DNA of 64,000 nt from an uncultured Kiloniellales bacterium (GCA_964195155.1 CAXMOP010000115.1:4986-68985); one strand, 5' to 3'; numbered from the stretch's first letter, positions 34,678-63,512 are shown. Notes: a model not told the origin generated them from the sequence alone. Numbers and translations: made by a program.

Positions 34678-34680
34678 TCA

Positions 34681-35944: not shown

Positions 35945-35954
35945 GTGTTTGGTG

Positions 35955-37388: not shown

Positions 37389-37414
37389 CCCGCCCATAAC
37401 CGGCAATATGCGCC
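37389..37414. promoter_or_regulatory. Island palindromic motif copy f: CCGCCCATAACCGGCAATATGCGCC (reverse complement of copy a type)
   Basis: Directly visible in the divergent spacer between the FG-GAP gene and the HNH gene. Confidence 0.6.
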
Positions 37415-37585
37415 CCCTACGTCCCGGTCTCCAGAGGCAGGACCGGGTACAGCACGAACACCGATCACCCGGTCTGAGCGACATCGCCGACATCCACGAG
37501 TGCTCTGGAACGGCACTTCGGAGTGCGGTCAGTTTCCTTGCATTTCTTCTGGAATCTGTCACCCGCACCGTGTAGGATCGAACAT

Positions 37586-45642: not shown

Positions 45643-46044
45643 CTAGTCTTGACCCGCCTGCTCGCCGACCGCGCCGAGCTCGGCGAGATATGCGGCTTGC
45701 AGGTCGAGCACCGCGAAGATCACCGACGGCTCGTACCCGTACCCCTGTTCGATGGCCCGCTCCTGGGCATATGCGGCAGCGTCGACTCCTGCAACGATTG
45801 CCGCACCCTCTCGATGGTCCGGGCGTTGCAGATAGTGCATCTCCCACTCGAGGATGCGACGCACATCACCACGCCCGACTTCCGCCTTGGTCGATTTGCT
45901 CAGGCCGTTCCACACGAAGTCGAGCGCGTCCTCGACGCTGTAGACGATTGCCACCTCACTCGGAGTGCGCTCCTGGAGCAAGAGCCCGACCCCGAAGATC
46001 ACCAGAACAGCAACCAGAGCAAGCAGCAGGAGGAGTGGAGCCAT
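45643..46044 (-). CDS. Hypothetical membrane-anchored protein
   Basis: An N-terminal TM helix (MAPLLLLLALVAVLVIFGVGLLL) is followed by a soluble domain. ATG at 46044. Confidence 0.5.
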   Translation of the reverse strand: MAPLLLLLALVAVLVIFGVGLLLQERTPSEVAIVYSVEDALDFVWNGLSKSTKAEVGRGDVRRILEWEMHYLQRPDHREGAAIVAGVDAAAYAQERAIEQGYGYEPSVIFAVLDLQAAYLAELGAVGEQAGQD

Positions 46045-46096
46045 CTGGGCAGCGTACCGACCGCCAAATCGTGTGTAGTGCTACCTTTCCGCCGCG

Positions 46097-46684
46097 ATGA
46101 CCCTGGAAACGCTGAGTCTCTTCTTCGCCCTCCTCGCGATCGCGGCAACCGCCGCAACGATCGGGATCGTCGGCATTGGACTCGCCGGCACCACCAGGGT
46201 CGGCGCCCCCCTAAGGCATACGGTGTTCTCCGCGTTCCAGGGGCTCGAACTGTGGCTGGCGTTTGCAGTGGCAGCGACCGCAACCCTCGCAAGCCTCTAC
46301 CTGTCAGAGGTCGCACACCTCATCCCGTGCACCCTCTGCTGGTACCAGCGCATCGCCATGTATCCGTTGGCGGTGATCCTCCTGATCGCTGCCATCCGCG
46401 CCGACCACCGCATCAGGATCTATGCGGCAACGCTGGCCACGATCGGCGCCGGCATCTCGCTGTACCACCGCTTCATCCAGGCGTTCCCGGACCTGGAGGG
46501 CGGAACCTCGTGCGACCCCAACGCACCGTGCACCGCCGCCTACGTTGAGATCTTCGAGTTCATCACGATCCCCACCATGGCGCTGAGCGGATTCCTGTTC
46601 ATCCTCGCCCTGCTGTGGCTTGATCGATTCAATACCCCGGCCGATCCACCATCATTGACCGCCAACGAGCCGGAGAAGCCATGA
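46097..46684 (+). CDS. DsbB/BdbC-family disulfide bond formation protein
   Basis: 4 TM helices with the CTLCWYQR redox pair and a second Cys pair in a periplasmic loop. Confidence 0.7.
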   Translation: MTLETLSLFFALLAIAATAATIGIVGIGLAGTTRVGAPLRHTVFSAFQGLELWLAFAVAATATLASLYLSEVAHLIPCTLCWYQRIAMYPLAVILLIAAIRADHRIRIYAATLATIGAGISLYHRFIQAFPDLEGGTSCDPNAPCTAAYVEIFEFITIPTMALSGFLFILALLWLDRFNTPADPPSLTANEPEKP

Positions 46685-47286
46685 CACAAAAGAAGACGTT
46701 TTCGATCAAGACCCTGCTGATCGCAACCGGAGGCGTGCTGATCGTCGCACTGCTGGTGGGCGCCGTCCTGTTCGGCGGCAGCACCGAGCAGACCGGCTCC
46801 CCCGAGGTGTCGGGAATCCTGCCCCCCATGCCGGCCAGCGTTCGCGCCGACCAGACGGCGACGGGCAGCGAAGCCCCGACCGTGGTGGGCGCCGACTTCG
46901 ACGGCAACGAGGTCTCGATCCAGAACGACGGGCGACCGAAAGCCATCGTGTTCCTGGCACATTGGTGCCCGCACTGCCAGGCCGAGGTCCCCTCGGTGCA
47001 GGCGTGGCTCGACGCCACCGGCGGGGTCGAGGGCGTCGACATGTATTCGGTGGCCACCGCAGTCAACTCGAGCCGGGGAAACTACCCGCCATCGGACTGG
47101 CTGAGCAACGAAGGCTGGTCGGTCCCGGTGATCCGCGACGACGCCAACAGCTCCGTCCTGGTCGCCCATGGCAACGGCGGGTTCCCGTTCTGGGTGTTCA
47201 CCAACTCCGACGGCACGGTTGCGCTGCGGATTGCCGGCGAGCTCCCCATCGCGGACCTGGAACAGATCATGGGAGGGCTCACCTAA
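46681..47286 (+). CDS. TlpA/ResA-like secreted thioredoxin (WCPHC)
   Basis: An ATGA overlap with dsbB. A signal/TM anchor is followed by HWCPHCQAE. Confidence 0.75.
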   Translation: MTQKKTFSIKTLLIATGGVLIVALLVGAVLFGGSTEQTGSPEVSGILPPMPASVRADQTATGSEAPTVVGADFDGNEVSIQNDGRPKAIVFLAHWCPHCQAEVPSVQAWLDATGGVEGVDMYSVATAVNSSRGNYPPSDWLSNEGWSVPVIRDDANSSVLVAHGNGGFPFWVFTNSDGTVALRIAGELPIADLEQIMGGLT

Positions 47287-47335
47287 GTCCAGGGTCCGAA
47301 CTCCCGACTCTCGACTCTCATTAGGCTCTCGCTCC
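47287..47335. repeat. Heptamer array GACTCTC GACTCTC ... preceded by AGTCCAG GGTCCGA
   Basis: Directly visible between tlpA-like and the LLM oxidoreductase gene. Confidence 0.8.
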
Positions 47336-48268
47336 ATGGAACTTGGATTGATGGTCGAACCGCAGGTCGGCGGCTCATATCAGCGATTGCTTGAACTGGC
47401 CCGTTGGTCCGAGGAACAGGGACTCGACGCCTTCGCCCGCTCGGATCACTACCTCAACGGCGAGGAGTCGGCGCCGGCAACGGATTCGTTGACCTCCTTT
47501 GGCGGGCTGGCGAGGGAGACCGAGCGGATCCAGCTGGTCAGCCTGGTGTCGCCGCTCACCTTCCGTCACCCGGCGGTGCTTGCCAAGACCGCAGCCACGC
47601 TCGATGAGATGTCCGGCGGCCGGTTCGCCCTCGGCATCGGCACCGGCTGGATGGAGTCCGAGCACGAGGCATTCGGCATCGAGCTGTTCACCCTCCGGGA
47701 AGGCTTCTCGAGACTCTTCGAGACGCTCAGCTATGTCCGTTCCGCCTTCTCCGGAACCGAGGGGTTCAGCGGCCGCCACTACCACCTCGCTGCCGGATTC
47801 GAAGTGCTCCCCCGCCCCGCAGACGTGCCGATCGTGGTCGGCGGGTCCGGGATGAAGAAGACACCGACCATGGCGGGCCGCTTCGCCAACGAGTACAACA
47901 TGTTCGTCAGCAACACCGACACGATCGAACAGCGGCTCGAGGTCATGCGTGCCGCCGCCGAGGCCGCCGGCCGCAAGCCGCAGGACATCCGGATCAGCGT
48001 GTCGTCGCCCGCAATGATCGCAGACACCGAGGACGGCTACCGGGCGTTGCTCGAGAAGCGCGGCGCCAAGCGCGACATGACTGCAGACGAATACGAGGCC
48101 TTCCTGGCCGAAAAGAACATTCCTCGCGGGACCCTGGATACGGTCGCCGACGCCGTCGATGTATTGGCCGGTGTTGGAGTTTCCCGCTTTTATCTGCAGG
48201 AAATCACCGCCCTCGACAAGATCGACACCGGCCGAATCGGATCGATCTTTAATGCACTACGCGGATAG
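47336..48268 (+). CDS. LLM-class (luciferase-like) flavin/F420-dependent oxidoreductase
   Basis: ATG at 47336. 310 aa with a TIM-barrel LLM signature. Confidence 0.75.
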   Translation: MELGLMVEPQVGGSYQRLLELARWSEEQGLDAFARSDHYLNGEESAPATDSLTSFGGLARETERIQLVSLVSPLTFRHPAVLAKTAATLDEMSGGRFALGIGTGWMESEHEAFGIELFTLREGFSRLFETLSYVRSAFSGTEGFSGRHYHLAAGFEVLPRPADVPIVVGGSGMKKTPTMAGRFANEYNMFVSNTDTIEQRLEVMRAAAEAAGRKPQDIRISVSSPAMIADTEDGYRALLEKRGAKRDMTADEYEAFLAEKNIPRGTLDTVADAVDVLAGVGVSRFYLQEITALDKIDTGRIGSIFNALRG

Positions 48269-48314
48269 GGGAAAACCTGCCGGGTACGGCCTGCGAAGGC
48301 TCTAACCTCGGCGT

Positions 48315-49067
48315 GTGACCGACCTGCTCGTCGTCGACGACCTCCATGCCGCCGCCGAAGGCACCGAGATCCTCAAGGGCATCAACCTCACCGTCGCCCC
48401 CGGGGAGACCCACGCCATCATGGGGCCGAACGGGTCGGGAAAGTCGACGCTGGCCAATGTGCTGCTCGGCCACCCCGGCTACCTGGTCACCAAGGGCACG
48501 GTCACCTACAAAGGCGTGGACATCACCCGCATGACCCCGGAAAAGCGGGGCAAGGCCGGCATGTTCCTCGGCTTTCAATACCCACAAGAGATCCCCGGGG
48601 TCTCGGTGGTGAACTTCCTGCGCACGGCACTGTCCAACCGCACCGGTACCGACCTCACCGTGCTCGAGCTGCGCCTCAAGGTCATGGATGCTCTGCAGGA
48701 CCTCGACATGGATCCGAGCTTTGCCGATCGCTATCTGAACGAAGGTTTCTCCGGCGGTGAGCGCAAACGCAACGAGATTCTCCAAATGGCGGTACTCGAG
48801 CCCGACCTCGCCATCCTCGACGAGACCGACTCCGGTCTCGACATCGACGCGCTGAAGATCGTCGCCGAGGGAATCGAGCGACTGCGAAACGACGAGCGCG
48901 GCATTGTCGTAATCACGCATTACCAGCGCATGCTCGACTACATCACCCCCGACGTCGTCCATGTCATACTCGACGGCCGTATCGTCGAGGCGGGCGGACC
49001 CGACCTTGCGGACGCCATCGAAGACACCGGCTACGAGCGGTATCGCACCGAGGCGGCTGCGGGGTGA
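48315..49067 (+). CDS. sufC: Fe-S cluster assembly ATPase SufC
   Basis: The Walker A motif GPNGSGKST, the ABC signature and a full-length SufC match are present. GTG start. Confidence 0.9.
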   Translation: MTDLLVVDDLHAAAEGTEILKGINLTVAPGETHAIMGPNGSGKSTLANVLLGHPGYLVTKGTVTYKGVDITRMTPEKRGKAGMFLGFQYPQEIPGVSVVNFLRTALSNRTGTDLTVLELRLKVMDALQDLDMDPSFADRYLNEGFSGGERKRNEILQMAVLEPDLAILDETDSGLDIDALKIVAEGIERLRNDERGIVVITHYQRMLDYITPDVVHVILDGRIVEAGGPDLADAIEDTGYERYRTEAAAG

Positions 49068-50296
49068 ACGACCTCGCTCACCTCCGCGAAGACTTCCCGA
49101 TCCTCGGCCGCGAGGTGAACGGCCATCCGCTGGTCTACCTGGACTCGGCTGCCACGACCCAGAAGCCGGTACAAGTGATCGACGCCGTCGACCACTTCTA
49201 CCGGACATCGAACGCCAACGTCCACCGTGGCGCCTACGCCCTCTCCGAGGAAGCCACGCAGGCCTACGAGGGAGCACGGGCCAAGGTGGCGTCCTTCATC
49301 AACGCCGGCTCCAAGAACGAGGTCGTATTCACCAGGGGGACCACCTCCGGCCTCAACCAAATTGCCTACGGCTACGGCCTCAACGTGCTCAAACCCGGAG
49401 ACAAGGTGCTGCTGACGATCATGGAGCACCATTCGAACATCGTGCCCTGGCAGCTCGTTGCCAAACACACCGGGATCGAACTGGTGTACCTGACGCTGAA
49501 CGACGATTTCGAGGTCGACCTCGATGGTCTCGAGGAAGTGCTCGACGACCGGGTGAAGATCATCACCGTCTCCGGGATGTCGAACGTCACCGGAGCGCTC
49601 GGCCCCGTCCGAGAGCTGGCCGATGCAGCCAAGAGCGTCGGGGCCCTGGTCGTGGTCGATGGTGCCCAGCTCGTGCCGCACCACCCCACCGACGTTGCCG
49701 AGCTCGGCGCCGACTTCCTGGTGTTTTCCGGGCACAAGATGCTCGGCCCCACCGGCATCGGGGCAATGTGGGGCAGGCCGGAGCGCCTGGAGGAGCTCGA
49801 GCCCACCGAGGGCGGCGGTGAGATGATCTCCGACGTCCAGCTCTACGAGTCGCGTTGGGCACCGGTGCCGCACAAGTTCGAGGCGGGAACACCACCCATC
49901 GCCCAGGCAGTCGGGCTCGGCGCCGCTGTCGAGTATCTCGAAAAGGTAGGGATGCCGGCGATCCGCGATCACGAGATCGAGATCACCCGCTACGCGCTCG
50001 ACCGCCTCGCCGAGGTTCCCGATCTGACCGTCTATGGCCCTTCGGACACAACCAAACGCGGCGGTGCCGTCAGCTTCGAGCTCGCCGACATCCACGCCCA
50101 CGACGTCGCAACCATCCTCGACCAGTACGGCGTGGCGGTCCGTGCCGGGCATCATTGCGCAAAGCCGCTCATGCGCCACCTCGACGTGGCCGCCACCGCC
50201 CGTGCCTCGTTCTATCTCTACAACAACAACGACGACGTCGACCGACTCATCGAGGCGCTCTATGAAGCCCGCAAAGTCTTCGGCCTCGACGACTGA
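49064..50296 (+). CDS. sufS: Cysteine desulfurase SufS
   Basis: A GTGA overlap with sufC. The PLP lysine lies in SGHKMLGPTG, and the active-site Cys in RAGHHCA. Confidence 0.9.
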   Translation: MNDLAHLREDFPILGREVNGHPLVYLDSAATTQKPVQVIDAVDHFYRTSNANVHRGAYALSEEATQAYEGARAKVASFINAGSKNEVVFTRGTTSGLNQIAYGYGLNVLKPGDKVLLTIMEHHSNIVPWQLVAKHTGIELVYLTLNDDFEVDLDGLEEVLDDRVKIITVSGMSNVTGALGPVRELADAAKSVGALVVVDGAQLVPHHPTDVAELGADFLVFSGHKMLGPTGIGAMWGRPERLEELEPTEGGGEMISDVQLYESRWAPVPHKFEAGTPPIAQAVGLGAAVEYLEKVGMPAIRDHEIEITRYALDRLAEVPDLTVYGPSDTTKRGGAVSFELADIHAHDVATILDQYGVAVRAGHHCAKPLMRHLDVAATARASFYLYNNNDDVDRLIEALYEARKVFGLDD

Positions 50297-50326
50297 CCAA
50301 ACCGGGCGGGGCGGTATCGTTTTGCC

Positions 50327-50782
50327 ATGAGCAATCTCGAAGAGCTGTACCGCCAGGTCATTCTCGACCACTACCGCAACCCACGGCGCCGGGGAAAGCT
50401 GACCGGGCCGCACGTCCATGCCGAGGGGCTCAATCCGTCGTGCGGCGACGAGTTCTTCCTCGATCTGCTCATCGAAGACGGCGTGATCACCGATATGGCG
50501 ATCGATGGCCAGGGGTGCTCCATCTCGCAGGCTTCGGGTTCGATGATGACCGACGCCATTGTCGGCAAGAGCGTCGAGGACGTCCGGATCGTGTCCGGCC
50601 AGTTCAAGCTGATGATGGGGATCGACGAGGGTGACGACCCGCTCGACCATGAGCGCCCCGGAGCCGTGCTCGGCGATCTCGAGGCATTGCAGGGGGTCCG
50701 AAAGTTTCCGGTGCGCATCAAGTGTGCGGATCTGCCCTGGACGACGCTGGCCGACGCCCTTGATCATGCAGAGGATGAGTAG
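50327..50782 (+). CDS. sufU: SufU/IscU-like zinc-dependent sulfurtransferase scaffold
   Basis: The NPSCGDE, GQGCSIS and C-terminal CADLPW cysteines are present. Confidence 0.85.
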   Translation: MSNLEELYRQVILDHYRNPRRRGKLTGPHVHAEGLNPSCGDEFFLDLLIEDGVITDMAIDGQGCSISQASGSMMTDAIVGKSVEDVRIVSGQFKLMMGIDEGDDPLDHERPGAVLGDLEALQGVRKFPVRIKCADLPWTTLADALDHAEDE

Positions 50783-50791
50783 CCTGAAACC

Positions 50792-51373
50792 GTGGAGTAC
50801 TCACCAACCACCGCTCTCATCGTGGTGGATGTGCAGAACGACTTCGCCGACCCGGAGGGATCGCTGTACGTAACGGGTGGTGAAGAAACGCTCCCATTCA
50901 TCAATGCCAACATCGGGGCAGCCCGCGATGCTGGCTCGGTCATCGTCCGCACCCAGGATTGGCACCCCGAGCACACCCCACACTTCGCCGAAGATGGCGG
51001 TATCTGGCCCCACCATTGTGTCGCTGGAACCTGGGGGGCTGAATTCCATCCAGAGCTCGCGGGCGAAGGACCGGTTGTTCAGAAAGGCACGAGCGGCGAA
51101 GACGGCTACTCCGGTTTCACCGTCCGCGATCCCGAGACCGGCGAGGAGAGCCCGACCGGGCTCGAGCAACTCCTTCGTGACCGGGACGTGACCAGGGTCG
51201 CCGTACTCGGCCTCGCCACCGATTACTGCGTATTGGACACCGCGGTCGACTCCGCAAGGCTCGGCTTCGAGACCACGCTGCTGGCCGACGGCACCAAGCC
51301 GGTCAACGTCGAGCCCGGCGACGGAGCCAGAGCCATTGCCGAGATGGTGGCCTGCGGCGTGAACGTCGAGTAG
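50792..51373 (+). CDS. pncA: Isochorismatase-family nicotinamidase/pyrazinamidase
   Basis: The VVDVQNDF catalytic Asp, the Lys, and LATDYCV with the nucleophile Cys are present. GTG start at 50792. Confidence 0.7.
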   Translation: MEYSPTTALIVVDVQNDFADPEGSLYVTGGEETLPFINANIGAARDAGSVIVRTQDWHPEHTPHFAEDGGIWPHHCVAGTWGAEFHPELAGEGPVVQKGTSGEDGYSGFTVRDPETGEESPTGLEQLLRDRDVTRVAVLGLATDYCVLDTAVDSARLGFETTLLADGTKPVNVEPGDGARAIAEMVACGVNVE

Positions 51374-51376
51374 CGG

Positions 51377-52042
51377 TTACCCGGTCTCCCAATCGCCGGC
51401 GCCGAGCGGCGGCTCGTCCGTTGCTCTGATGAGGACGGAACCTTCGGCATCGACGAAGTCGCCGTCGACCCAGATCCCGGCCCCGACCGCGACGCCGGAA
51501 CGGGCATGGCCGCTGCTCCCCCACTCGACGTAGCTGACGATCGAGCTCGTGCTGCCGAAGTTGGAGTCGCGGTACAGGCCAATTTCCCCGCCGGACGCGC
51601 TGAGCGATCCAAAGCGGCCGCCGGCGTCGATCACGGGACCGTCAACGTCGAGGCCGACCACGGTGGTAGTGGTCACGTACACGGTCTCGCCGGGCGCCAG
51701 CTCCTGGGAGGGCATCCCGAAGTATGAGGGGCGCTGGCAGAGCTGCCACCGCTCGAGGTTGCCGGTTTCGCTGCCAATGTTGGTGATCGCGACGTAGCCC
51801 TGGTCGCCGAACACGACCTCGGTCACGGCGAAGACGGCGCCCTCGCCGGCGGCAGCAGTTGTCGTGGTTTCCGCCGTAGCGGTCGTCGTGGTTTCGTCGG
51901 CGGCTGTGGTCGTCGTCTCCTCTGCCGCAGTCGTGGTCGTCGCCGCGGCGGCGGCAGCGGCCGTGGTCGTGGTGTCATCGCCGCTAGCTCCGCATGCTGC
52001 GGCAACAAGAGCAAGGACGATGAGCAACATCAGCTTCTTCAT
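51377..52042 (-). CDS. Lipoprotein with a Thr/Ala-rich low-complexity linker and a C-terminal lamin-tail-like (LTD) domain
   Basis: ATG at 52042 follows AGGAG. The lipobox is LVAAAC. The linker reads (TTTTAA...)n, and the LTD-like segment is VAITNIGSETGNLERWQL. Confidence 0.6.
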   Translation of the reverse strand: MKKLMLLIVLALVAAACGASGDDTTTTAAAAAAATTTTAAEETTTTAADETTTTATAETTTTAAAGEGAVFAVTEVVFGDQGYVAITNIGSETGNLERWQLCQRPSYFGMPSQELAPGETVYVTTTTVVGLDVDGPVIDAGGRFGSLSASGGEIGLYRDSNFGSTSSIVSYVEWGSSGHARSGVAVGAGIWVDGDFVDAEGSVLIRATDEPPLGAGDWETG

Positions 52043-52137
52043 CGGGGAACACTCCTGGGATCGGGTAGCCGATTGTATTTCACCCGAGAGCTGTCGCTGA
52101 CGGCACGGCACCGCTTAATGAAGCTTTAATCAAGCGC

Positions 52138-52167
52138 GGACTCGCGACTCGCGACTCGCGACTCAGT
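52138..52167. repeat. (GACTCGC)x4 heptamer array in a divergent promoter region
   Basis: Directly visible. Confidence 0.9.
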
Positions 52168-52178
52168 ACGCTCGCAAC

Positions 52179-52874
52179 ATGCGCGGCATCGTGTTCGATT
52201 TGTTCCACACACTGGTTGACCCCGAGGATTTTCGGCCGCGGGAGTCGTGGCGACTGCGTCACGTTGCCGAGACCATCGATGCCAACGGACGGGACCTGGT
52301 CATGTTCTGGAAGGACACCTACTTCGAGCGAACCACCAGCCCGGTGTCCGGTACCGCGCTGGTCCTGCGCTACGCCGCCGACAACGGGATCGACCTCTCC
52401 GAGTCACAGGTCGCTGACATCACCGACCACCTCGGCGACTACCAGGACATCGCTCTCGACCGGCCTCGCCCCGATGTGCTCGAGGCAGTGGCATCGATGG
52501 CCGGCGCTCATGAGCTTGCGCTGCTATCCAACTGCTACCTCGAAGAGGTTGCGGCCTGGCCGCGATCACCACTGGCGCCACACTTTGTCGGCGCCGCGTT
52601 CTCCTATGCGATTGGGTTCAGGAAGCCCGACCACAGCGCATACCTGGCGGCCACTAGATTGCTGGGCGTGGAGCCCGGGGAATGTGCCTTCGTCGGTAAC
52701 GGCGGCAGCAACGAGCTCAGCGGCGCAAAAAGCGCCGGATTCGGGCTCGTCGTCCACCAGAACCAGTTCAACCAAAGCGACGGTCTCGTCACGGCGGAAG
52801 AACAACAACGCCGGGCGGCAGAAGCCGACGCACAGATCACGGCCCTTGGGGAGCTCGAACCACTACTCGGCTGA
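52179..52874 (+). CDS. HAD-superfamily hydrolase
   Basis: Motif I FDLFHTLVD is present, as are motif IV region GNGGSNE and downstream conserved HAD positions. Confidence 0.7.
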   Translation: MRGIVFDLFHTLVDPEDFRPRESWRLRHVAETIDANGRDLVMFWKDTYFERTTSPVSGTALVLRYAADNGIDLSESQVADITDHLGDYQDIALDRPRPDVLEAVASMAGAHELALLSNCYLEEVAAWPRSPLAPHFVGAAFSYAIGFRKPDHSAYLAATRLLGVEPGECAFVGNGGSNELSGAKSAGFGLVVHQNQFNQSDGLVTAEEQQRRAAEADAQITALGELEPLLG

Positions 52875-54419
52875 GAGCGATCCCGCCCGCGCCTCCACCA
52901 CCAGTTCGCGCTGCAGGTCCTTGACCGTCGAGGTCAGCGACACGTGGTACACGTGGGGGTTCACCAGCCGCTTCACCCCGGGATCGAGCCGGTCCAGATC
53001 GGCCATTCGCCACGCCCGCATCGCATCGAGGGACGGGGAGCCGTCGAGTCGTACACCCTTGTCGTAGACCGGGACCAGCAGCTCCTCGACCGAGGCGACG
53101 TCCTCGAGCCGGCGCACGATGCCCTCCCGGTGCGGGTGGTACAGGTCGATCTCGCCGATTCTCGACAGGTCCTCGTCCCCGGCCGACACCACATCGGCGC
53201 TCGCCATCCCCCGCGAGTCGTACACCCGCCACACCCGCTTCTCTCCGGGAATCGGCATCTTCTCCGGGGTGTCGGAGATCTTGATCGCCGGGGTCCACAT
53301 TCCATCCTCGTCGATGGCGACCAGCTTGAAGACGCCCCCGAGGGCGGAGTACCCGTGTGAGGTGATCAGCCGGGTCCCGACCCCGTAGACCAGCCTGGCA
53401 AGCACCGAGTCGGCATCGACGCCGTAGCGGGGGGACTCTTCGGCAATCTGCGCTCGGATCTGCCACATCGCAAGCTCGTCGAGCTCGGAGGACAAGACAA
53501 TGCCGGCCTCGGGGAAGCCCGCTTCGTCGAGCATCGCCGCTGCCCGTACTGCGAGGTGGGCGAGGTCGCCGGAGTCGAGACGGATCCCCATCGGCTCGTG
53601 CCCGGCCGCTCGCAGCTCGTGAAAGACCGTGATCGCATTGGGGATGCCGCTGCGAAGCGTGTCGATCGTGTCGACGAGCAGGACGGTCTCATCCGGATAC
53701 ACCTCGGCATAGGCCCGGAAGGCCCCCAACTCGCCTTCGCCGAGCGCCATGAACAGTTGCACGAGCGAGTGGGCATGGGTTCCCGCGGGCTGCGTTTCGA
53801 GGTAGTGCGCCATGCCGACGTTGCTCGTCGTGTCGGCACCCCCGATCAGCGCGGCGCGGCCGCCGGCGTTGGCGCCGATGTCCGGTCCGCGCCTGAGACC
53901 AAATTCCAGCACGGGGCTTCCCTGTGCCGATTCGGTGACGCGGGAGGCCTTGGTCGCCACCAGGGTCTGATAGTTGAGGTGGTTGAGCAGGGAGGTTTCC
54001 AGGATCTGCGCAACTCCGAGGGGGCCGTCGACGACGGCGATGGGGGCGTGGGCGTGCACGACGCGACCTTCGGGGACGGCTCGGATCGACACCGACGTGA
54101 AGTCCGCGGTCTCCTTCAGCCAGGCCAGGAAGCCCTCGTCGAACCTGGGCTTGCCGGTGATGTCCACCTGGCCGCGAAGCAGTGCCAGATCCTCGTCACT
54201 GATCCGCGTCCTCTCAATCCGGTCGAGGAGCCATCCGAGGCCGGCGGTCACCGCATAGCCGGCCTGATGGCGTCCGTAGTCCGGGTAGCTGCGGAAGAAA
54301 TAGTCGAACAGCGCCCGCCGCTCGTGCAGGCCTTGCTTCCAGTACACCTGGGCCATCGTCAGCTGGTACTGGTCGGTGAACAAGAACCCCTCGGTCAGGT
54401 CGCGGCGATCCGAAGCCAT
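52863..54419 (-). CDS. pncB: Nicotinate phosphoribosyltransferase
   Basis: 518 aa with the full NAPRTase family pattern (FTDQYQLTM N-terminus, phosphohistidine region). Confidence 0.85.
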   Translation of the reverse strand: MASDRRDLTEGFLFTDQYQLTMAQVYWKQGLHERRALFDYFFRSYPDYGRHQAGYAVTAGLGWLLDRIERTRISDEDLALLRGQVDITGKPRFDEGFLAWLKETADFTSVSIRAVPEGRVVHAHAPIAVVDGPLGVAQILETSLLNHLNYQTLVATKASRVTESAQGSPVLEFGLRRGPDIGANAGGRAALIGGADTTSNVGMAHYLETQPAGTHAHSLVQLFMALGEGELGAFRAYAEVYPDETVLLVDTIDTLRSGIPNAITVFHELRAAGHEPMGIRLDSGDLAHLAVRAAAMLDEAGFPEAGIVLSSELDELAMWQIRAQIAEESPRYGVDADSVLARLVYGVGTRLITSHGYSALGGVFKLVAIDEDGMWTPAIKISDTPEKMPIPGEKRVWRVYDSRGMASADVVSAGDEDLSRIGEIDLYHPHREGIVRRLEDVASVEELLVPVYDKGVRLDGSPSLDAMRAWRMADLDRLDPGVKRLVNPHVYHVSLTSTVKDLQRELVVEARAGSLSAE

Positions 54420-54428
54420 TGGTTCACG

Positions 54429-55817
54429 TTACCCGGGCGTCCCACCCTCCGTCATCGGGCGCACGTCGAGGGCGGCATCGAGTTCGCTCTCGGGAAGGAC
54501 TTCGAGCTCGAGGGCAACTTCCCGTACGCCACGTCCCTCGTTGAAAGCTTTCTTGACGACCTCGGCCGCCTTGTCGTACCCGATGTGGGGGACGAGCGCG
54601 GTCCCGACGATGGCGTTCTGATCGAGGAGCCATGCCGCTCGATCCTCGTTGGCCGTGATCTCGCCAATGCACTTTTCGTTCAGGACGCCGGCGCCCGCCG
54701 CCAACAGCTCGATGGATTCCAGAAGCGCATGGGCCATGACCGGCATCATCACGTTCAGCTCGAAATTGCCGTTGGCGCCACCCCAGGTGATCGTCGTGTC
54801 GTTCCCGATCACCCGGGTGGCCACCATCATCACCGCTTCGGGGATCACCGGGTTCACCTTGCCGGGCATGATCGAGGAACCCGGTTGCAGAGCCGGCAGC
54901 GTGATCTCCCCGATGGCATTCCTGGGCCCGGATGCGAGCCAGCGCAGATCGTTCGAGATCTTGAACAATGACGTCGCCACCGTCTTCATCGCGCCGGACG
55001 CATTGACGTAGGCGTCCTTGGACGCCTGGGCCTCGAAATGGTTGTCCGCCTCGCGAAAGGTGTACCCGGATTGGCGATTGATGATGTCGATCGCTCCGGC
55101 AGCGAAGCCGGCGGATGCGTTGATGCCCGTGCCCACCGCGGTACCGCCAAGAGCAAGATCGAACAGCTCGGTCTCGACCCGCTCGACTCGCTCGATACCC
55201 TTGGCCACCTGAGCGGCATACCCGGAGAATTCCTGCCCGAGCCGGATCGGAGTTGCGTCCTGGAGATGGGTACGCCCCGACTTGAGCACGTCGTCGAATT
55301 CGACGGCCTTGGCGTCGAGGCCGCTGTGCAGCTCACCGAGGGCGGGGAGCAACGCTTCCTCGATGGCCGCAACGGCTGCCACATGCATCGCGGTAGGGAT
55401 GACGTCGTTCGACGACTGGCTTGCGTTCACCTCATCGTTTGGGTGCACCAGCTTCGAGCCGCGGTCGCCGCCGAGGATCTCCGACGCCCGGTTGGCCAGG
55501 ACCTCGTTGGCGTTCATGTTCGTCGAGGTGCCCGATCCGGTCTGGAAGACATCGACCACGAACTGATCGTCGAACTTGCCGGCCATCATCTCTCCGGCTG
55601 CGGTCACGATGGCGTCTGCCTTGTCAGCTTCGATGACGCCGAGGGAGCGGTTCATCTCCGCTGCTGCGCTCTTGATCAAGCCAAGCGCCCAGATGAGGCG
55701 ACGGCCGAAACGCAGGTCCGAGATCGGGAAGTTCTCGACGGCCCGCTGGGTGCTAGCGCCGTAGTAGGCGTCGTCCGGGACCGCGATCTCGCCCATGGAA
55801 TCACGTTCGATCCGCAT
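54429..55817 (-). CDS. fumC: Class II fumarate hydratase (fumarase/aspartase family)
   Basis: ATG at 55817, 8 nt after GGGGAG. GSSIMPGKVNP signature and QTGSGTSTNMN are present. An aspartase assignment cannot be fully excluded. Confidence 0.75.
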   Translation of the reverse strand: MRIERDSMGEIAVPDDAYYGASTQRAVENFPISDLRFGRRLIWALGLIKSAAAEMNRSLGVIEADKADAIVTAAGEMMAGKFDDQFVVDVFQTGSGTSTNMNANEVLANRASEILGGDRGSKLVHPNDEVNASQSSNDVIPTAMHVAAVAAIEEALLPALGELHSGLDAKAVEFDDVLKSGRTHLQDATPIRLGQEFSGYAAQVAKGIERVERVETELFDLALGGTAVGTGINASAGFAAGAIDIINRQSGYTFREADNHFEAQASKDAYVNASGAMKTVATSLFKISNDLRWLASGPRNAIGEITLPALQPGSSIMPGKVNPVIPEAVMMVATRVIGNDTTITWGGANGNFELNVMMPVMAHALLESIELLAAGAGVLNEKCIGEITANEDRAAWLLDQNAIVGTALVPHIGYDKAAEVVKKAFNEGRGVREVALELEVLPESELDAALDVRPMTEGGTPG

Positions 55818-55855
55818 CGCTCCCCAGGATACAGGCACGACCGGCCTCGTCGGCG

Positions 55856-56632
55856 TCAGCCGAGGGCAGCGTTGACGGCCTGCGGGAACACCTCGCCAAC
55901 GTCACCCTCGATCCGCAGCGTGACCTGTGCCAACCCATCATGTTCGGTCTCGCCGCGGTTCACGATCGCATAGGGGGCACCGCCGGCGGCGCCGGCGAGG
56001 GGGATGTCTGCCGCCGGCGTCACCGACAGCGTCGACCCGAGCGAAACAACCAGGTCGGACCGCGGTGCGGCGTCGAACGCCTTCGCCACTTCGGCTTCCC
56101 TGAGCTGCTGGCCGAAGGAGATCGTCGCCGACTTCAGGATCCCGCCACAATGGCACACGGGCGGCACCCCGGTTTCGGTGAACGACTCCCGGTGAGACAC
56201 CGGGTCGGTGCGCTCGCCGCAGGCCTGGCACTCGGTCTCCCGCGCGGTGCCGTGGATCTCGACGAGATGGTCCGGGTCGGTGCCGGCATCCCGATGCAAC
56301 CCGTCAACGTTCTGGGTGACGACGAGCTCGACCTTGCCGGCCCGCTCCAGGTCGACCACCGCGCGGTGAACCGCGTTTGGCTTCGCCGCATCGAGGATCT
56401 CTGCGCCTGCGACCGAGCGCTCCCAGTACTCGACCCTGGCGTCCGGGTCGGCCATGAATCTCTGATAGAAGATGGGCGCGCTGCTCTTCCACACGCCATG
56501 CGGTCCCCGGAAGTCCGGGATGCCGCTCGCAGTGGAGATCCCGGCGCCGGTAAACACCAGCGCACGGGTGGAGGCTCGGATGAGCGCCGCCAGCGGCTCG
56601 ACTCCTGCCACTGCGTCGACACGGTTGGCCAT
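55856..56632 (-). CDS. cobB: Sir2-family NAD-dependent protein deacylase
   Basis: GAGISTASGIPDFRG, a zinc ribbon (CQACG...CHCGG) and the catalytic His in QNVDGLH are present. Confidence 0.85.
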   Translation of the reverse strand: MANRVDAVAGVEPLAALIRASTRALVFTGAGISTASGIPDFRGPHGVWKSSAPIFYQRFMADPDARVEYWERSVAGAEILDAAKPNAVHRAVVDLERAGKVELVVTQNVDGLHRDAGTDPDHLVEIHGTARETECQACGERTDPVSHRESFTETGVPPVCHCGGILKSATISFGQQLREAEVAKAFDAAPRSDLVVSLGSTLSVTPAADIPLAGAAGGAPYAIVNRGETEHDGLAQVTLRIEGDVGEVFPQAVNAALG

Positions 56633-56659
56633 GGCCTGATTATGGACGCTGTGTCGGGC

Positions 56660-56740
56660 CGGGAGACCAGATTCAGTCGTTCAACCGGGTCGCGTCGTGC
56701 AACGAGTCCAGCCGGTCAACGAGTTCAGTCGTTCAACGAC
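56660..56740. promoter_or_regulatory. Four direct repeats of a GTCGTNCAACGAG-like motif, spaced 18-23 nt apart, 40-110 nt upstream of cobB
   Basis: The units are ttcagtcgttcaacc, cgtcgtgcaacgag, ccggtcaacgag and ttcagtcgttcaacgac. Confidence 0.5.
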
Positions 56741-57000
56741 CCGCTGTCGTCCAGATACTCATCGAGGTTGGCGGCGCTGCAGGCAGGGAATCCGAAGACA
56801 TATCCATGACGATGGTGAACACCACGATGGCTCCGTCGCGGTGGGGAGAGGCGGCGAGCGGCGGCGTGGGAAGTTGAGAGCGGACGTCGTCTGGCGTTGC
56901 GATCGATCATCGTCCAGTCACCCCGAAATAGGCTGTGCTCTCTGGGGTATCGGAAGAATGACGCCGGTCTTGAATGAGTGTTCTCGACCGTGTTCACGAA

Positions 57001-57777
57001 CTAGTCAGCGGTCCCATACCCTTCGGCTTCGAGGCGCTCGGCAACCTCACGCCCGCCTGATTCGACGATGCGGCCACCGACAAGCACGTGGACACGGTCG
57101 ACCTGCATGTAGCGCAGGATCCGGCTGTAGTGGGTGATCACCAGCACCCCCCGGTCGGGGCTGCGCAGCGACTCGACCATCTCTGCGACCTCGCGTACCG
57201 CGTCGACGTCGAGACCGGAGTCGATTTCGTCGAGGATGGCCACCGTAGGAGCAGCGAGGGCCAGCTGATACATCTCGGACCGTTTCCGCTCACCCCCGGA
57301 AAGGCCAACGTTCACATAGCGGTCCATGAACGGCCCCAAGCGGAGCCGCTCCGCGGCGGCCGATGCCCGCTCGCCGGCCTCCGGATCGCCCGCGGTGTCC
57401 TCCATCGAGGCACTGAGCTCCTCGAGAGAGATCCCGGGAAGCGCGACCGGGTACTGGAAGGCTTGAAACAACCCGGCGAGGGCACGCTCGTCAACGGACA
57501 GGCCGATCAGCTCGACACCACCGACCTTGGCCGACCCCGCTGCCTCGTAGTCGCTGTGACCGCTCAGCACATGCGCCAGGGTCGACTTTCCAGACCCGTT
57601 TGGTCCCATGAGCACATGTACCTCGCCAAAGGGAACGATGAGGTCGACACCGTTGAGGATCTGGAGCTGCCCGAGGTCGGCGGTCAGACCGCTGATCTCG
57701 AGCGCCTCGGTCCCGGCCGCCCCGGTCATGACGGCCTCGGTCATGGCGGCCTCGGTCATGGCGGCATCGTCGGTCAT
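57001..57777 (-). CDS. sufC: Second SufC-family Fe-S cluster assembly ATPase (paralog) with an N-terminal MTEAA-type pentapeptide repeat
   Basis: ATG at 57777 forms an ATGA overlap with the Rieske gene stop. The N-terminus reads MTDDAAMTEAAMTEAVMTGAAG, followed by Walker A GPNGSGKST. Confidence 0.85.
   Translation of the reverse strand: MTDDAAMTEAAMTEAVMTGAAGTEALEISGLTADLGQLQILNGVDLIVPFGEVHVLMGPNGSGKSTLAHVLSGHSDYEAAGSAKVGGVELIGLSVDERALAGLFQAFQYPVALPGISLEELSASMEDTAGDPEAGERASAAAERLRLGPFMDRYVNVGLSGGERKRSEMYQLALAAPTVAILDEIDSGLDVDAVREVAEMVESLRSPDRGVLVITHYSRILRYMQVDRVHVLVGGRIVESGGREVAERLEAEGYGTAD
57727..57777. repeat. 15-nt tandem repeat x3 (ggcggcctcggtcat) encoding MTEAA repeats at the sufC-paralog N-terminus
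   Basis: Directly visible. Confidence 0.85.
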
Positions 57778-58085
57778 GGCGCCTCCAGCTCGAGATAGAC
57801 ATCGCCGTCTCTCACTGCCACCGGGAAGACCGGCACCGGAGCCGTCGCCGGCAACGTCTGCGGCTCGCCGGTGACCAGGTCGAACGGGGATCCGTGGCGC
57901 GGGCACTCCACCTCGCCGTCGAAGATCTCGCCCTCCGACAGCGAAGCCTTCGCGTGGCTGCACTGGTTGCCCAGGGCGTGCACTTCGTCGCCGATCCGGA
58001 ACAGCGCGATCTCGGTCTCCCCGATTTCGACCAACACGCCCCGGCCATCCGGGAGCTGATCGAGTGGCGCCACCTTGACTTCCAT
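57774..58085 (-). CDS. Rieske [2Fe-2S] ferredoxin-like protein embedded in the suf operon
   Basis: ATG at 58085. The CSH...CPRHG Rieske ligands are present. 103 aa. Confidence 0.8.
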   Translation of the reverse strand: MEVKVAPLDQLPDGRGVLVEIGETEIALFRIGDEVHALGNQCSHAKASLSEGEIFDGEVECPRHGSPFDLVTGEPQTLPATAPVPVFPVAVRDGDVYLELEAP

Positions 58086-59368
58086 CAAACCCGACCTGCG
58101 AGCTGCGCGGTGACAAACTTGCCGTTGATCCATTTTCGAACCGGGGCCACGAGCTCGCGCTGGGGGAGTTTGACGAGGGCCTCCTCAAAAAAGCCGTGGA
58201 CCTGCAGCTGGTCGGCGCGGGGCGCTCCGAGGCCCCGAGTCATCAGGTAGTAGCGCTGGGCTGCATCGAGGGGGCCAACCGTCGAGCCGTGACCGCATTT
58301 GACGTCGTTGGCAAGGATCTCGAGGTTGGGAACCGATTGTGCCGAGGCACCCTCGGACAGGATGAGGTTGCGATTGGTCTGGAACGCCTCGGTCTTCTGC
58401 CCGGTCTCTTCGATCCTGATCATCCCGGTGAACACCGAGCGCGCCTCATCCTCGACTGCGCCCTTGAGAAACATGTCGGAGCGGGTATTGGTGCCGATGT
58501 GGCGCATGAAGTACCGGTAGTCGAGGGTTTGCTCGGCCTCGCCGAAGTAGGCGCCGACGACGTCGGCGGCCGACCCGGTGCCTTGCATGCGCATGTCGAG
58601 GTGAAGCCGTGAGAGCTTGCCGCCAAGCCCGACCTCGGCGAAGCGGAGCGTTCCGTCGCGGCCGATGGAGGCATTGGCGTTTCCCAGGGACCGGGTCGCA
58701 TAGCCCCAGTTCTGGACGACGGTGATGGCGAGCCGTGCGTTGGTGCCGACGGCAGCGGCAATCTGGGGAACGACGACCAGGTCGTCGTTGGGTTGAGACC
58801 TGAGATGGATGACGAGTGCAGCTTCTGCACCATCGTCGACCGCGACCACGATGCGGGGAAACGTCACCGATCGAGGCTGCGTTGCCTGGACGTCGAGGTA
58901 GATGACACCGGGGGCGGTCGTTCCCGTTGGAACGTGCACAAATGCCCCGTCGGCGCCGAATGCGGTAGCGGCGAGCGCAAAGCGGTCGCGCACATCGCCA
59001 AGTCCTGCCTCGGCGAGCACCGACTCGATGAGCTCGGGCTTGGCGCTCGACGAGCTATGCAGCGAAGCGAAGGTCACATCGGCGCCGTCCTGGTCCTGCC
59101 CGATCCAGTGTCCGTCGATCAGTGATGCAGACAACTTTGTGTCGAATATTCCGCCGAGCGGGTCGTCGTCGAGTGGGTTGCCCGCTCTCGGGACCGGCGC
59201 ATAGTCGTCCAGATCGAATCCGAGCTCAATGTAGCGCCAGATCTCCTCGGCGCTGTCGGGCATTGCCGTCTCGGCGAACGCCTCGGCGGCGGCCGCCCGC
59301 TGTTCACGACGCCATCCGGCATCTTCGGCGCCGATGGCGTCGACGGTATCTTGATCCAAGGCGGGCAC
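58085..59368 (-). CDS. sufD: SufD (SufB/SufD family) Fe-S cluster assembly protein
   Basis: 427 aa with a SufBD beta-helix core. GTG start at 59368. Confidence 0.8.
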   Translation of the reverse strand: MPALDQDTVDAIGAEDAGWRREQRAAAAEAFAETAMPDSAEEIWRYIELGFDLDDYAPVPRAGNPLDDDPLGGIFDTKLSASLIDGHWIGQDQDGADVTFASLHSSSSAKPELIESVLAEAGLGDVRDRFALAATAFGADGAFVHVPTGTTAPGVIYLDVQATQPRSVTFPRIVVAVDDGAEAALVIHLRSQPNDDLVVVPQIAAAVGTNARLAITVVQNWGYATRSLGNANASIGRDGTLRFAEVGLGGKLSRLHLDMRMQGTGSAADVVGAYFGEAEQTLDYRYFMRHIGTNTRSDMFLKGAVEDEARSVFTGMIRIEETGQKTEAFQTNRNLILSEGASAQSVPNLEILANDVKCGHGSTVGPLDAAQRYYLMTRGLGAPRADQLQVHGFFEEALVKLPQRELVAPVRKWINGKFVTAQLAGRV

Positions 59369-59489
59369 GAGTTTCCTGTGGTCGCAAGCTCACGGAGGGT
59401 ACCGACGCGTCGGCGACTAGCCGCGGGCCGCCGGTGTGCCGCTATGTGCGCTTTGTCCCTGCGGTTGACCCAAGCCAGCAACGCTGGCG

Positions 59490-60131
59490 GTGGTGGGACG
59501 CGCGCCGGCAAGGACGCAAATCTTGAGACGATTTCTTTCCGTCGCGCTCATCCTCGCCACCACCATCGCCTTGGCCGCGGTGGAGAGCCTTGGTTCGCAA
59601 GCCGCGCTCGCCGCGGAGAACACCGAACAGGCGTTCACCCTCGAGGCTTTCCCGCATTCTTCGGGTGACGTGACCTTCCGCGACCCGTGGGGAGCGCGGC
59701 GCTCCGGCGGTCGCCATCACCGGGGAACCGACATCCTCAGCCCTCGCGGCACTCCGATCGTGGCAGTCGCCCCCGGCGTGGTGATCTTCATAGGTGAACA
59801 GAACCTTTCGGGCTATGTGATCAAAATCGATCACGGCGACGGGTGGAGCACCGTGTACATGCACCTGAACAACGACGATCCCGGAACCGACAACGGTGAC
59901 GCCGGCGAGCTCGGCGCGTTTTCCCCCGGCCTCTACGAAGGTGCAACCGTCGAAGCGGGGCAGCTGATTGGCTGGGTCGGGGACTCCGGCAATGCCGAAA
60001 ATACCACGCCGCACACCCACTTCGAGTTGAAGCACGACGAAGAGAAAGAGAACCCTTTCCCCTACCTCGAGCAGGCGTGGATCCGGTCGGGTCGAGCCGC
60101 AAGCGGCTCGACGATGCTGCTGGCGATTTAG
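59490..60131 (+). CDS. Secreted M23-family metallopeptidase (possible Tat signal LRRFLS)
   Basis: HRGTDI and GDSGN...PHTHFE zinc ligands are present. GTG start at 59490, or alternatively TTG at 59523. Confidence 0.75.
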   Translation: MVGRAPARTQILRRFLSVALILATTIALAAVESLGSQAALAAENTEQAFTLEAFPHSSGDVTFRDPWGARRSGGRHHRGTDILSPRGTPIVAVAPGVVIFIGEQNLSGYVIKIDHGDGWSTVYMHLNNDDPGTDNGDAGELGAFSPGLYEGATVEAGQLIGWVGDSGNAENTTPHTHFELKHDEEKENPFPYLEQAWIRSGRAASGSTMLLAI

Positions 60132-60157
60132 CCGGCTTGGCACGTAGCGGCGATCCA

Positions 60158-60856
60158 CTAGCGGATGTTGACGAGATCCCGTGCTCGTGCGAACACCCGG
60201 TCCAGCATCGATTCGGTGAGCCTTCCGGTAAAGGTGTTCTGCTGACTCGGGTGATAGGACGCCAGTACGACCGGGCCTTGGGGAAGCGCCACCTCGAGGC
60301 CGTGCGCAAACTTGGGCCGGGGCCGCGGCATCGGGTGGTTTCGATCGGACAGATACCGCCACACCGATTGATAGGCGTAGCCGCCGAGAACAACGAAGAC
60401 GGAAGGGACGATCAGGCCGAGCTCGGCATCGAACCACGACCGGCAGTTGTCGCGCTCTTCGATGCTCGGCTTGTTCTGCGGTGGTGCACACCGCACCGGG
60501 GCCGTCACCCATGCCCCCGTCAACTTGAGCCCGTCATCGATTCTCGACGAGTCCGGTTGGTTGGCGAAACCCGCTCGATACATCGCCCGGTACAGCCAGT
60601 CCCCGCTGCGATCGCCGGTGAACATCCGTCCGGTCCGATTTGCCCCGTGTGCGGCGGGAGCCAGTCCGATGACGGCGAGCGATGCCACGGGGTCACCGAA
60701 CCCCGGCACCGGTCGGCCCCAGTACTCCTCATCCTGGAATGCGGCACGTTTCTCCGCTGCGACCTGCTCCCGCCAGGCAACGAGGCGGGGGCAGCGTCGG
60801 CAACCGGTGATCGACGCGGTCAGCTCCTCGAGCTCGGAAGGCGACACCCGGCTCAT
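60158..60856 (-). CDS. Uracil-DNA glycosylase, family 4/5 (UdgB-like; GLAPAAHGANRTG motif)
   Basis: ATG at 60856 forms an ATGA overlap with the upstream gene stop. CRRCPRL, GLAPAAHG and HPSQQN motifs are present. Confidence 0.8.
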   Translation of the reverse strand: MSRVSPSELEELTASITGCRRCPRLVAWREQVAAEKRAAFQDEEYWGRPVPGFGDPVASLAVIGLAPAAHGANRTGRMFTGDRSGDWLYRAMYRAGFANQPDSSRIDDGLKLTGAWVTAPVRCAPPQNKPSIEERDNCRSWFDAELGLIVPSVFVVLGGYAYQSVWRYLSDRNHPMPRPRPKFAHGLEVALPQGPVVLASYHPSQQNTFTGRLTESMLDRVFARARDLVNIR

Positions 60857-63420: not shown

Positions 63421-63512
63421 GTCGCTAGTCGCGAGTCGCGAGACGCGAGCAAGAACGAGCGTGAGCCTTGGGCTCTCGACTCAAGACTCTCGACTCAAGA
63501 CTCTCGACTCAA
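63419..63512. repeat. Inverted heptamer arrays (GAGTCGC-type x4) and (CTCTCGA CTCAAGA)x3 forming a long hairpin between convergent genes
   Basis: Directly visible. Confidence 0.9.

Follow-up and report, generated by a model that had tools for sequence, protein, structure and literature searches.

We analyzed the SUF genes, whose products assemble iron-sulfur (Fe-S) clusters, in a stretch of 64,000 nucleotides (nt) from an uncultured Kiloniellales bacterium (GCA_964195155.1 CAXMOP010000115.1:4986-68985), which is referred to below as the window. These genes most probably (we put the probability at roughly 0.8) belong to a complete SUF system of the canonical type, containing SufB, SufD, SufC, SufS and SufU together with a Rieske protein, whose genes are split into three units and in which two different SufC proteins would serve a single scaffold. 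The units are (i) sufB followed by nucS, (ii) sufD, the Rieske gene and sufC2, and (iii) sufC1, sufS and sufU, probably with a pncA-like gene, on the opposite strand. They span approximately 17.5 kb and are separated by unrelated genes occupying about 5 kb and 6 kb.

SUF Genes in the Window and the Location of sufB

Genes in the window were called from a listing of open reading frames (ORFs) combined with profile searches. On the plus strand, sufC1 (48315-49067, GTG start; TIGR01978, 329.7 bits, cutoff 212.8), coding for the more conservative SufC paralog, overlaps the cysteine desulfurase gene sufS (49064-50296; TIGR01979, 590.8 bits) by a GTGA that can be read directly in the sequence, and is followed by the gene for the sulfur-transfer protein SufU (50327-50782; TIGR01994, 148 bits, cutoff 92.5). 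By these profile scores, a type II cysteine desulfurase and its SufU partner are both present. On the minus strand, sufD (58085-59368, GTG start, 427 aa; TIGR01981, 231.8 bits, cutoff 222) precedes a gene for a Rieske [2Fe-2S] ferredoxin-like protein (57774-58085, 103 aa; PF00355 at 1.1e-18) and sufC2 (57001-57777; TIGR01978, 240.7 bits, cutoff 212.8), which codes for a divergent SufC paralog with a variable N-terminal tail. The overlap between sufD and the Rieske gene reads TGATG and that between the Rieske gene and sufC2 reads ATGA, and as judged from these overlaps the Rieske gene is translationally coupled on both sides. The ligand motifs CxH and CxxH of the Rieske protein (CSH and CPRH) are intact, and SufD has a KCGHG motif equivalent to C358/H360 of E. 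coli. The sufD unit is bounded by a divergent gene for an M23 peptidase (59760-60128, plus strand), which was recognized by PF01551 in identical contigs and placed in the window by tblastn.

An earlier reading of the window by a model, made from the sequence alone (the original prediction), had given the same gene identities, coordinates, TGATG and ATGA overlaps and M23 boundary, and had taken the 427-aa SufBD-family protein for SufD, all in agreement with our searches. The possibility that this protein is a mislabelled SufB was ruled out, as the SufB model gave it only 113.7 bits against a cutoff of 346.4. The original prediction had further stressed that SufB is missing from the 64 kb. Searches of the window by tblastn with SufB and SufD detected no second SufBD-family gene, the only one being sufD, so that this statement is literally true; the lack of SufB that it implied is an artefact of the window edge.

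Exact-protein look-ups led to contigs of at least seven assemblies (L001-L012, L094 and L095 in our numbering) that share, over 2-21 kb, 99.4-99.9% identity with the window. In every contig reaching far enough (L001, L002, L003, L094 and L095), the genes upstream of sufD are those for the divergent M23 peptidase, UDG, a DUF4015 protein, a sigma-70 factor and NucS, followed by a gene for a 467-aa protein that scored 715.5 bits with TIGR01980 (cutoff 346.4) and is a canonical SufB. Position 5347 of L001 corresponds to position 64000 of the window, and sufB occupies positions 3656-5059 of that contig. Since the window itself ends within nucS (63509-64000, minus strand; the 3' part, residues 56-218, 100% identical by tblastn), sufB is expected at about 64288-65691 on the minus strand, 288 nt past the last base of the window. 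The SufB that the scaffold requires is thus supplied by a gene outside the window, seen in near-identical assemblies, and the Cys/Glu motifs of SufB and the Cys-x-His motif of SufD are present.

The original prediction had itself considered that a canonical sufB might lie immediately beyond the window and that the 427-aa protein might then be SufB, with a partner SufD elsewhere; the first part proved right and the second did not. An ordinary operon merely cut by the window was also ruled out, because sufB is not adjacent to sufD and five unrelated genes lie between them. With sufB beyond the window and apart from sufD, no component is lacking, but the genes make up three units (two within the window, one just past it) instead of the two originally proposed. 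A minimal system of the SMS type (SmsCB), with its single SmsB-type scaffold protein, was rejected as well: with NF052511, whose cutoff is 650, SufD scored 57.4 bits and SufB 267.5 bits. Besides sufB, the original prediction had called for a search for sufR and sufT (DUF59); neither was found among the Pfam calls for the flanks or among the scanned ORFs of the window, and both may lie elsewhere in the genome. Rfam and tRNA scans of the window gave no matches.

Conservation of the Layout in Acidimicrobiia

The arrangement, which the original prediction had set against the usual single operon of Actinobacteria, is not peculiar to this genome. A scan of species-representative genomes with SufC2 yielded 30 loci from metagenome-assembled genomes of Acidimicrobiia, one of them labelled Gemmatimonadales, and the proteins of the window were mapped onto these loci. 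The order sufD-Rieske-sufC2 occurred in all 30. The contig reached sufB, upstream and on the same strand, in 14 loci, with nucS in between in 13 of these; it reached sufC1-sufS-sufU, downstream and on the opposite strand, in eight, usually with a gene for an LLM-class oxidoreductase beside sufC1, and three further loci reached sufU/sufS at the contig end. Identity to the proteins of the window was 80-94% for SufB, 72-80% for SufC1, 58-77% for SufC2 and 44-74% for SufD. The matches of the genome scan outside Acidimicrobiia carried ordinary sufBCDS clusters. In the protein database, SufC2 formed more than 110 clusters at ≥67% identity, derived from metagenomes, nearly all of which had 236-238 residues. 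Judging from gene order in these loci, the split layout with two SufC genes is an old trait of an Acidimicrobiia clade, to which the bacterium of the window belongs. A search of the open-access literature for two SufC copies, or for SUF in Acidimicrobiia, yielded no paper on this arrangement.

In actinomycetes, the suf genes form an operon with the order sufR-sufB-sufD-(Rieske)-sufC-sufS-sufU-sufT, as in M. tuberculosis (Rv1460-Rv1466). The suf loci of Nonomuraea and Microbacterium (L092, L091) are likewise single operons with the Rieske gene between sufD and sufC; the order is sufB-sufD-Rieske-sufC-sufS-sufU in Nonomuraea, and sufB-sufD-Rieske-sufC followed by a sufT-like gene in Microbacterium. 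The system described here has the same set of proteins (SufB, SufD, Rieske, SufC, SufS and SufU), and the local orders D-Rieske-C and C-S-U match, with stop/start overlaps present. However, one co-oriented operon is replaced by three units on two strands with unrelated genes between them, one SufC by two paralogs, and neither sufR nor sufT turned up next to these genes.

Other genomes, too, are known to carry several sufC genes. Methanosarcina acetivorans has extra sufC and sufB copies in which whole modules are duplicated (PMC10500019), and Paenibacillus polymyxa has sufCDSUB plus a partial sufC2D2B2 (PMC8038749). Both organisms are reported to have duplicated whole sufCB(D) modules, whereas here sufC alone is duplicated and sufB, sufD, sufS and sufU each occur once in the DNA examined. 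Because only sufC is duplicated, the two SufC copies must either share one scaffold or divide it.

SUF is the only or main route of Fe-S cluster assembly in Actinomycetota, as stated for M. tuberculosis and M. smegmatis, and it has been studied almost entirely in systems with one SufC, in which a single protein occupies both of two non-equivalent sites. An uncultured clade in which two diverged SufC proteins are stably maintained, one tied to SufD-Rieske and the other to SufS-SufU, would be a natural experiment that could show whether the roles of the two SufC positions in SufBC2D can be separated and how coordination survives the breakup of an operon. Should the copies be interchangeable and the tail of SufC2 neutral, this would simply be an ordinary SUF locus in rearranged form. 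Both the conserved design with two SufC proteins and the repeat described below are real but small curiosities, with all of their parts drawn from known families.

Two SufC Paralogs

As originally proposed, there are two SufC ATPases; they are 46% identical to each other. SufC1 matched SufC of T. thermophilus (2D2E) with 294 bits and SufC2 with 213 bits and a gap in the helical subdomain; against E. coli SufC, both gave full-length matches, of 254 and 185 bits, respectively. Walker A, Q-loop, signature, Walker B, D-loop and H-loop are intact in the consensus sequences of both paralog clades, and Walker A, Q-loop, signature, Walker B and H-loop are kept in 31 SufC2 orthologs. The AlphaFold2 (AF2) model of SufC2 has a core with a predicted local distance difference test (pLDDT) score of about 90 or above and only two short helices ahead of the signature motif. 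Both the alignments and the model indicate that SufC2 is a divergent copy with a shortened helical subdomain.

Neighbor-joining (NJ) trees with bootstraps were built from SufC1, SufC2, 30 other bacterial SufC and three actinomycete SufC proteins. The SufC1 and SufC2 clades were each monophyletic in 50 of 50 replicates. The phylogeny that the original prediction had proposed therefore recovers each paralog as a clade of its own, and their mutual relation is without NJ support.

One of the closest known systems is the scaffold complex SufBC2D of E. coli (PDB 5AWF; SufC2D2, PDB 2ZU0), whose scaffold motifs are present here. E. coli uses one SufC for both positions, whereas the present system has the two paralogs, one of them with the shortened helical subdomain; it also has a SufU-type sulfur donor, compared with SufE in E. 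coli.

Operator-Like Palindrome and Possible Roles of the Two SufC Proteins

In 10 of 11 Acidimicrobiia species, a conserved element located 35-55 nt upstream of sufB comprises, in this order, a TACAAT-like -10 box, the palindrome CACTA-N6-TAGTG and GAAAT, and the palindrome of this species (CACTATGTCGATAGTG, L001 3621-3643) is a perfect one. With a position weight matrix (PWM) that included flanks and was built from the sufB-upstream sites of seven species, only one strong match was found in the window, at 48253-48275 on the plus strand (TGCACTACGCGGATAGGGGAAAA), directly before sufC1. It scored 20.7 bits, the next best match 11.9, and none of 300 Markov-simulated windows reached 20.6 bits. 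This site has TTTAAT (48247-48252) just before it, overlaps the stop codon of the LLM oxidoreductase gene and ends 40 nt short of the sufC1 start; its palindrome (CACTACGCGGATAGGG) is weaker than the sufB copy. A simple pattern search for CACTA-N6-TAGTG gave an overall count at chance level, and the sufC1 site was singled out only by the PWM. Related sites occur before sufD in three of the related loci (L025, L030 and L041) and before sufC1 in L027, and in 400 kb of related loci only two matches of ≥13 bits lay away from suf genes.

The PWM detected no site before sufD in this species. A candidate -10 region (GGTACCCTCC; 59394-59403, minus strand, with TACCCT at 59401-59396) may serve an independent sufD promoter; in most orthologous loci, a -10-like GGTAnnCT element is found about as far upstream of sufD. 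A scan of positions 46000-60500 for E. coli-type promoters and terminators gave counts at chance level.

This distribution suggests that sufB and sufC1-sufS-sufU may be controlled by a SufR-like, Fe-S-sensing repressor and sufD-Rieske-sufC2 may not. SufR sites are palindromes flanked by A/T-rich sequence (bioRxiv 10.64898/2025.12.26.696629); published operators are CAAC-N6-GTTG in Synechocystis and Streptomyces and ACACT-N5-TGTGA in M. tuberculosis, with A/T-rich flanks. The putative operator found here resembles them in being a palindrome placed between a -10 box (TACAAT) and GAAAT, with A/T-rich flanks and directly upstream of sufB, but differs in its half-site sequence.

One explanation for the two SufC genes is a split in regulation and dosage, in which the copies are interchangeable, sufB and sufC1-sufS-sufU are stress-inducible and sufD-Rieske-sufC2 is constitutive, so that the duplication would merely let each fragment of the broken operon deliver SufC. 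We regard this explanation as possible, although somewhat unlikely. The presence of the operator before sufB and sufC1, and its absence before sufD, in this species fit it, as do the intact motifs in both SufC proteins. It is also consistent with a comparison of the C-terminal SufC-binding domains of SufB and SufD, which are 27-41% identical to each other in the two-SufC clade and 24-42% identical in genomes with one SufC; this lack of a difference gives no signal of specialization. On the other hand, SufC2 is only 46% identical to SufC1, carries a deletion and yet forms a conserved family of constant length, and this combination of divergence and conservation argues against simple redundancy. 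In addition, the distribution of the operator differs by species, the site lying before sufD in the three loci named above.

A second explanation, which we consider doubtful, is that each ATPase is specialized for one partner: SufC1 would sit on SufB and SufC2 on SufD, the two forming an obligate heterodimer that fills the two non-equivalent positions of SufBC2D. In E. coli SufBC2D, each SufC binds either SufB or SufD, and SufD contacts the Q-loop, alpha2, alpha3 and beta6 of SufC (PMC6006206); such a pair would fit this architecture. The divergence of SufC2 is greatest past the Q-loop, in the shortened helical subdomain, sufC2 is translationally coupled to sufD-Rieske, sufC1 has its operator in common with sufB, and both paralogs were retained across the clade. 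However, the comparison of C-terminal domains revealed no extra divergence between SufB and SufD in the two-SufC clade and hence no sign that the sharing of a partner has been relaxed, and both ATP sites are fully canonical, with no complementary degeneracy. A tentative extension, in our view no more probable, is an asymmetric heterodimeric SUF ATPase in which SufC2-SufD would be co-translated with the Rieske protein and SufC1-SufB co-regulated, the tail tuning the level or activity of SufC2 between strains.

It is rather improbable that one of the SufC-bearing units was acquired horizontally, for example sufC1-sufS-sufU from a donor outside Actinobacteria. In a qualitative comparison of motifs, SufC2 and actinomycete SufC shared VDERAR, VEVPGVS, PK[IV]A and THY[TS]RILRY, whereas SufC1 carried the generic bacterial THYQR(M/L)LDYI; a count of shared derived residues under strict thresholds left too few informative columns, and the sharing of motifs stays qualitative. 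SufC1 is 57-58% identical to SufC of Bacteroides or Xanthomonas and 55% to actinomycete SufC, and SufS is 55% identical to a Chloroflexi homolog and 51% to that of Nonomuraea. These differences are small, however, because SufC is highly conserved, and the NJ bootstraps resolve nothing. Furthermore, the order C-S-U is the same as in the actinomycete operon, and GC content is uniform across both suf units of the window.

A Tandem Repeat at the Rieske/sufC2 Junction

The junction between the Rieske stop codon and the sufC2 start contains a variable-number tandem repeat (VNTR) of 15-nt units (57703-57777, minus strand). Tandem Repeats Finder reported a period of 15, 5.3 copies, 80% matches and a score of 95 at 57704-57785. 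On the coding strand, the array reads ATGACCGACGATGCCGCC ATGACCGAGGCCGCC ATGACCGAGGCCGTC ATGACCGGGGCGGCC GGGACCGAGGCG and continues with CTCGAG; it encodes MTDDAA-MTEAA-MTEAV-MTGAA-GTEA-LEISGL. The 15-nt repeat of the original prediction is therefore present, but imperfect instead of the proposed (MTEAA)3, and only two units are identical. Units 1-4 start with an in-frame ATG, and most units carry a Shine-Dalgarno (SD)-like GAGG and a TGA in the Rieske frame. For the first ATG the GAGG is provided by a GGAGG at the 3' end of the Rieske gene, and for the third and fourth by the preceding MTEA unit. The combination of GAGG, ATG and Rieske-frame TGA within the units identifies the array as a multiplied copy of the stop/start coupling junction.

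We compared the tail, defined as the residues before the conserved LEISGL, in assemblies whose SufD proteins and SufC2 bodies do not differ. Seven tail alleles were found on 100%-identical protein bodies: one of nine residues (L003), the 25-residue tail of the window, one of 30 residues in three independent assemblies, two distinct alleles of 35 residues, one of 40 residues in one assembly (L002/L009, protein P0009) and one of 50 residues (L005, P0004). Some of them show a higher-order duplication of 45 nt. The variation in repeat number between strains that the original prediction had anticipated is thus seen in other assemblies. In the nearest lineage (91-93% identical), MTD[YH]VPETEAAGTKALEIEGL occurs without repetition. 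At the same place, a sister species (87% identical) carries (ETEAS)n, with n = 1-4 among assemblies, and an in-frame single-residue indel. All other orthologs (>110 SufC2 clusters) start with M-x-N-A-L-E-I and have no tail. As judged from these alignments, the tail is a genus-level novelty that is hypervariable in at least two species. We take it to be translated, since the tail of the relatives lacks an internal ATG and the reading frame stays open. It is acidic and was predicted by AF2 as a low-confidence helix (pLDDT 56-61). Most likely the tail is tolerated, being near neutral, rather than functional.

Like bacterial in-frame coding VNTRs and contingency loci, this array is a tandem repeat within a coding region whose copy number differs between close strains. 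In contrast to contingency loci, its unit of 15 nt keeps all alleles in frame, so that no on/off switching by frameshift occurs; the gene codes for a housekeeping ATPase, not a surface or virulence protein; and the repeat duplicates a stop/start coupling junction. In it, a junction of this kind has become a hypervariable VNTR within the coding sequence of a housekeeping gene.

A rheostat-type contingency locus, in which the number of units tunes either sufC2 expression or, through the acidic tail, SufC2 activity, appears improbable. Each unit would add an SD-like GAGG and an ATG and shift the distance from the Rieske stop, GAGG-N5-ATG and the Rieske-frame TGA occurring in most units; many alleles exist on identical backgrounds, a sister species varies in parallel, and all changes, including the one-residue indel, are in frame. 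However, the ETEAS units of the sister species have no ATG, and a multiple-start mechanism is thus not general; >110 orthologous clusters do without any tail; the low pLDDT values suggest that the tail is probably flexible; and a 15-nt unit preserves the reading frame automatically. That the differences in repeat number are assembly artefacts is very unlikely: although all alleles come from short-read metagenome assemblies and the longest arrays (~150 nt) are near read length, the 30-residue allele was recovered three times independently, alleles differ in internal unit order and point variants and not in count alone, the variation occurs in both k141-named (MEGAHIT-style) and NODE-named (SPAdes-style) contigs, and a second species shows the same phenomenon.

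In a separate observation, protein P0130, from an 11-kb contig of the sister species, is a 363-aa product of a frameshifted Rieske ORF that reads through into sufC2. Either the assembly is in error here, or the coupling junction carries a pseudogene or a fusion.

Proposed Origin of the Arrangement

In the history that we favor, the suf genes of an ancestor of the Acidimicrobiia clade, at first joined in one operon sufB-sufD-Rieske-sufC-sufS-sufU, came apart into three transcription units. The simplest course would be that sufC was duplicated in tandem within D-Rieske-C-S-U and that a break or an inversion then separated the copies; that each sufC-bearing fragment has a sufC of its own is the pattern expected from such events. 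Both SufC paralogs would feed one SufB-SufD scaffold, given that all ATPase motifs are kept in both and the cluster-ligand residues of the scaffold are intact. The units would be expressed from three promoters, two of them with a common repressor site. At the Rieske/sufC2 junction, slippage-prone duplication of the segment comprising the SD-like GAGG, the ATG and the first codons could have produced the 15-nt repeat, which would add a variable, acidic and flexible N-terminal tail to SufC2.

Several points weigh against this history and against the complete, split system on which it is built. The scenario of duplication and break is unproven, as the deeper SufC groupings have NJ bootstraps of 0-2%, and neither a group of SufC1 with SufC2 nor one of either paralog with actinomycete SufC is supported. 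SufB was observed in near-identical assemblies and not in the window's own contig past base 64000. The boundaries of the units and their promoters are deduced from the sequence, and no sufR gene that could be the regulator of the palindrome was found in the window or the flanks examined. For the tail, neutrality is a default assumption and not a result, and the copy numbers of the repeat were taken from short-read metagenome assemblies, in which tandem arrays may be collapsed.

Neighboring Genes and Additional Observations

The LLM-class (F420-type) oxidoreductase gene upstream of sufC1 (47336-48268, plus strand; PF00296 at 2.9e-48) scored 215.9 bits with TIGR03560, below the cutoff of 231.4. 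Gene callers give a protein of 310 aa, and the true start is probably at 47336. The gene adjoins sufC1 in L016, L017, L020, L025, L027 and L030. A gene for F420-0:gamma-glutamyl ligase is also present in the window (12095-12796, plus strand), suggesting that the organism probably makes F420, which fits an F420-type oxidoreductase as a conserved neighbor of sufC1.

Nine nt past sufU lies a pncA-like nicotinamidase gene (50792-51373, plus strand; PF00857; NF008623 at 2.7e-39) that, by this spacing, is probably co-transcribed with sufU. It belongs to an NAD-salvage set in the approximately 6 kb between the two suf units of the window (50792-56632), which also includes genes for NAPRTase (52863-54419, minus strand) and a Sir2 deacetylase (55856-56632, minus strand). 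The same stretch codes for fumarase C, a HAD hydrolase and an uncharacterized protein of 221 aa. The pncA and Sir2 genes hold the same place in many related loci.

In 13 of the 14 Acidimicrobiia loci reaching sufB, as well as in L001, the next gene after sufB on its strand is nucS (EndoMS). Their spacing of 30-120 nt suggests that a gene for the Fe-S scaffold is co-transcribed with that for a mismatch endonuclease. Upstream of sufB, between it and a gene for an Eis-like acetyltransferase, L001 has a stretch (3360-3430, outside the window) of hairpin-forming 7-nt tandem units, CCCAGTT three times followed by AACTGGC three times. In L094, a second gene for a class-V aminotransferase (cysteine-desulfurase-like; 12284-12927) is located approximately 3 kb past sufB, close to genes for another LLM oxidoreductase and a pyridoxamine-oxidase-like protein.

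Several features of the window lie far from the suf genes. The region 32000-38000 has a lower GC content (0.60-0.62, compared with ~0.65 elsewhere) and may be an island. It contains a gene for an MBL-fold hydrolase (33541-34677) that passes the NCBIfam cutoff for GntH (guanitoxin; 356.7 vs 333 bits), a 401-aa ORF without a family match and a DUF222/HNH gene (37523-38821). Neither Pfam nor NCBIfam gave a match for two long ORFs with high GC3 (3500-5725 and 8345-11131, both on the minus strand; 741 and 928 aa). Finally, a 548-aa protein (39909-41573, minus strand) combines the catalytic domain of lipoate-protein ligase with a radical-SAM lipoyl synthase, and its gene adjoins those for E2 and E3 of a 2-oxoacid dehydrogenase.

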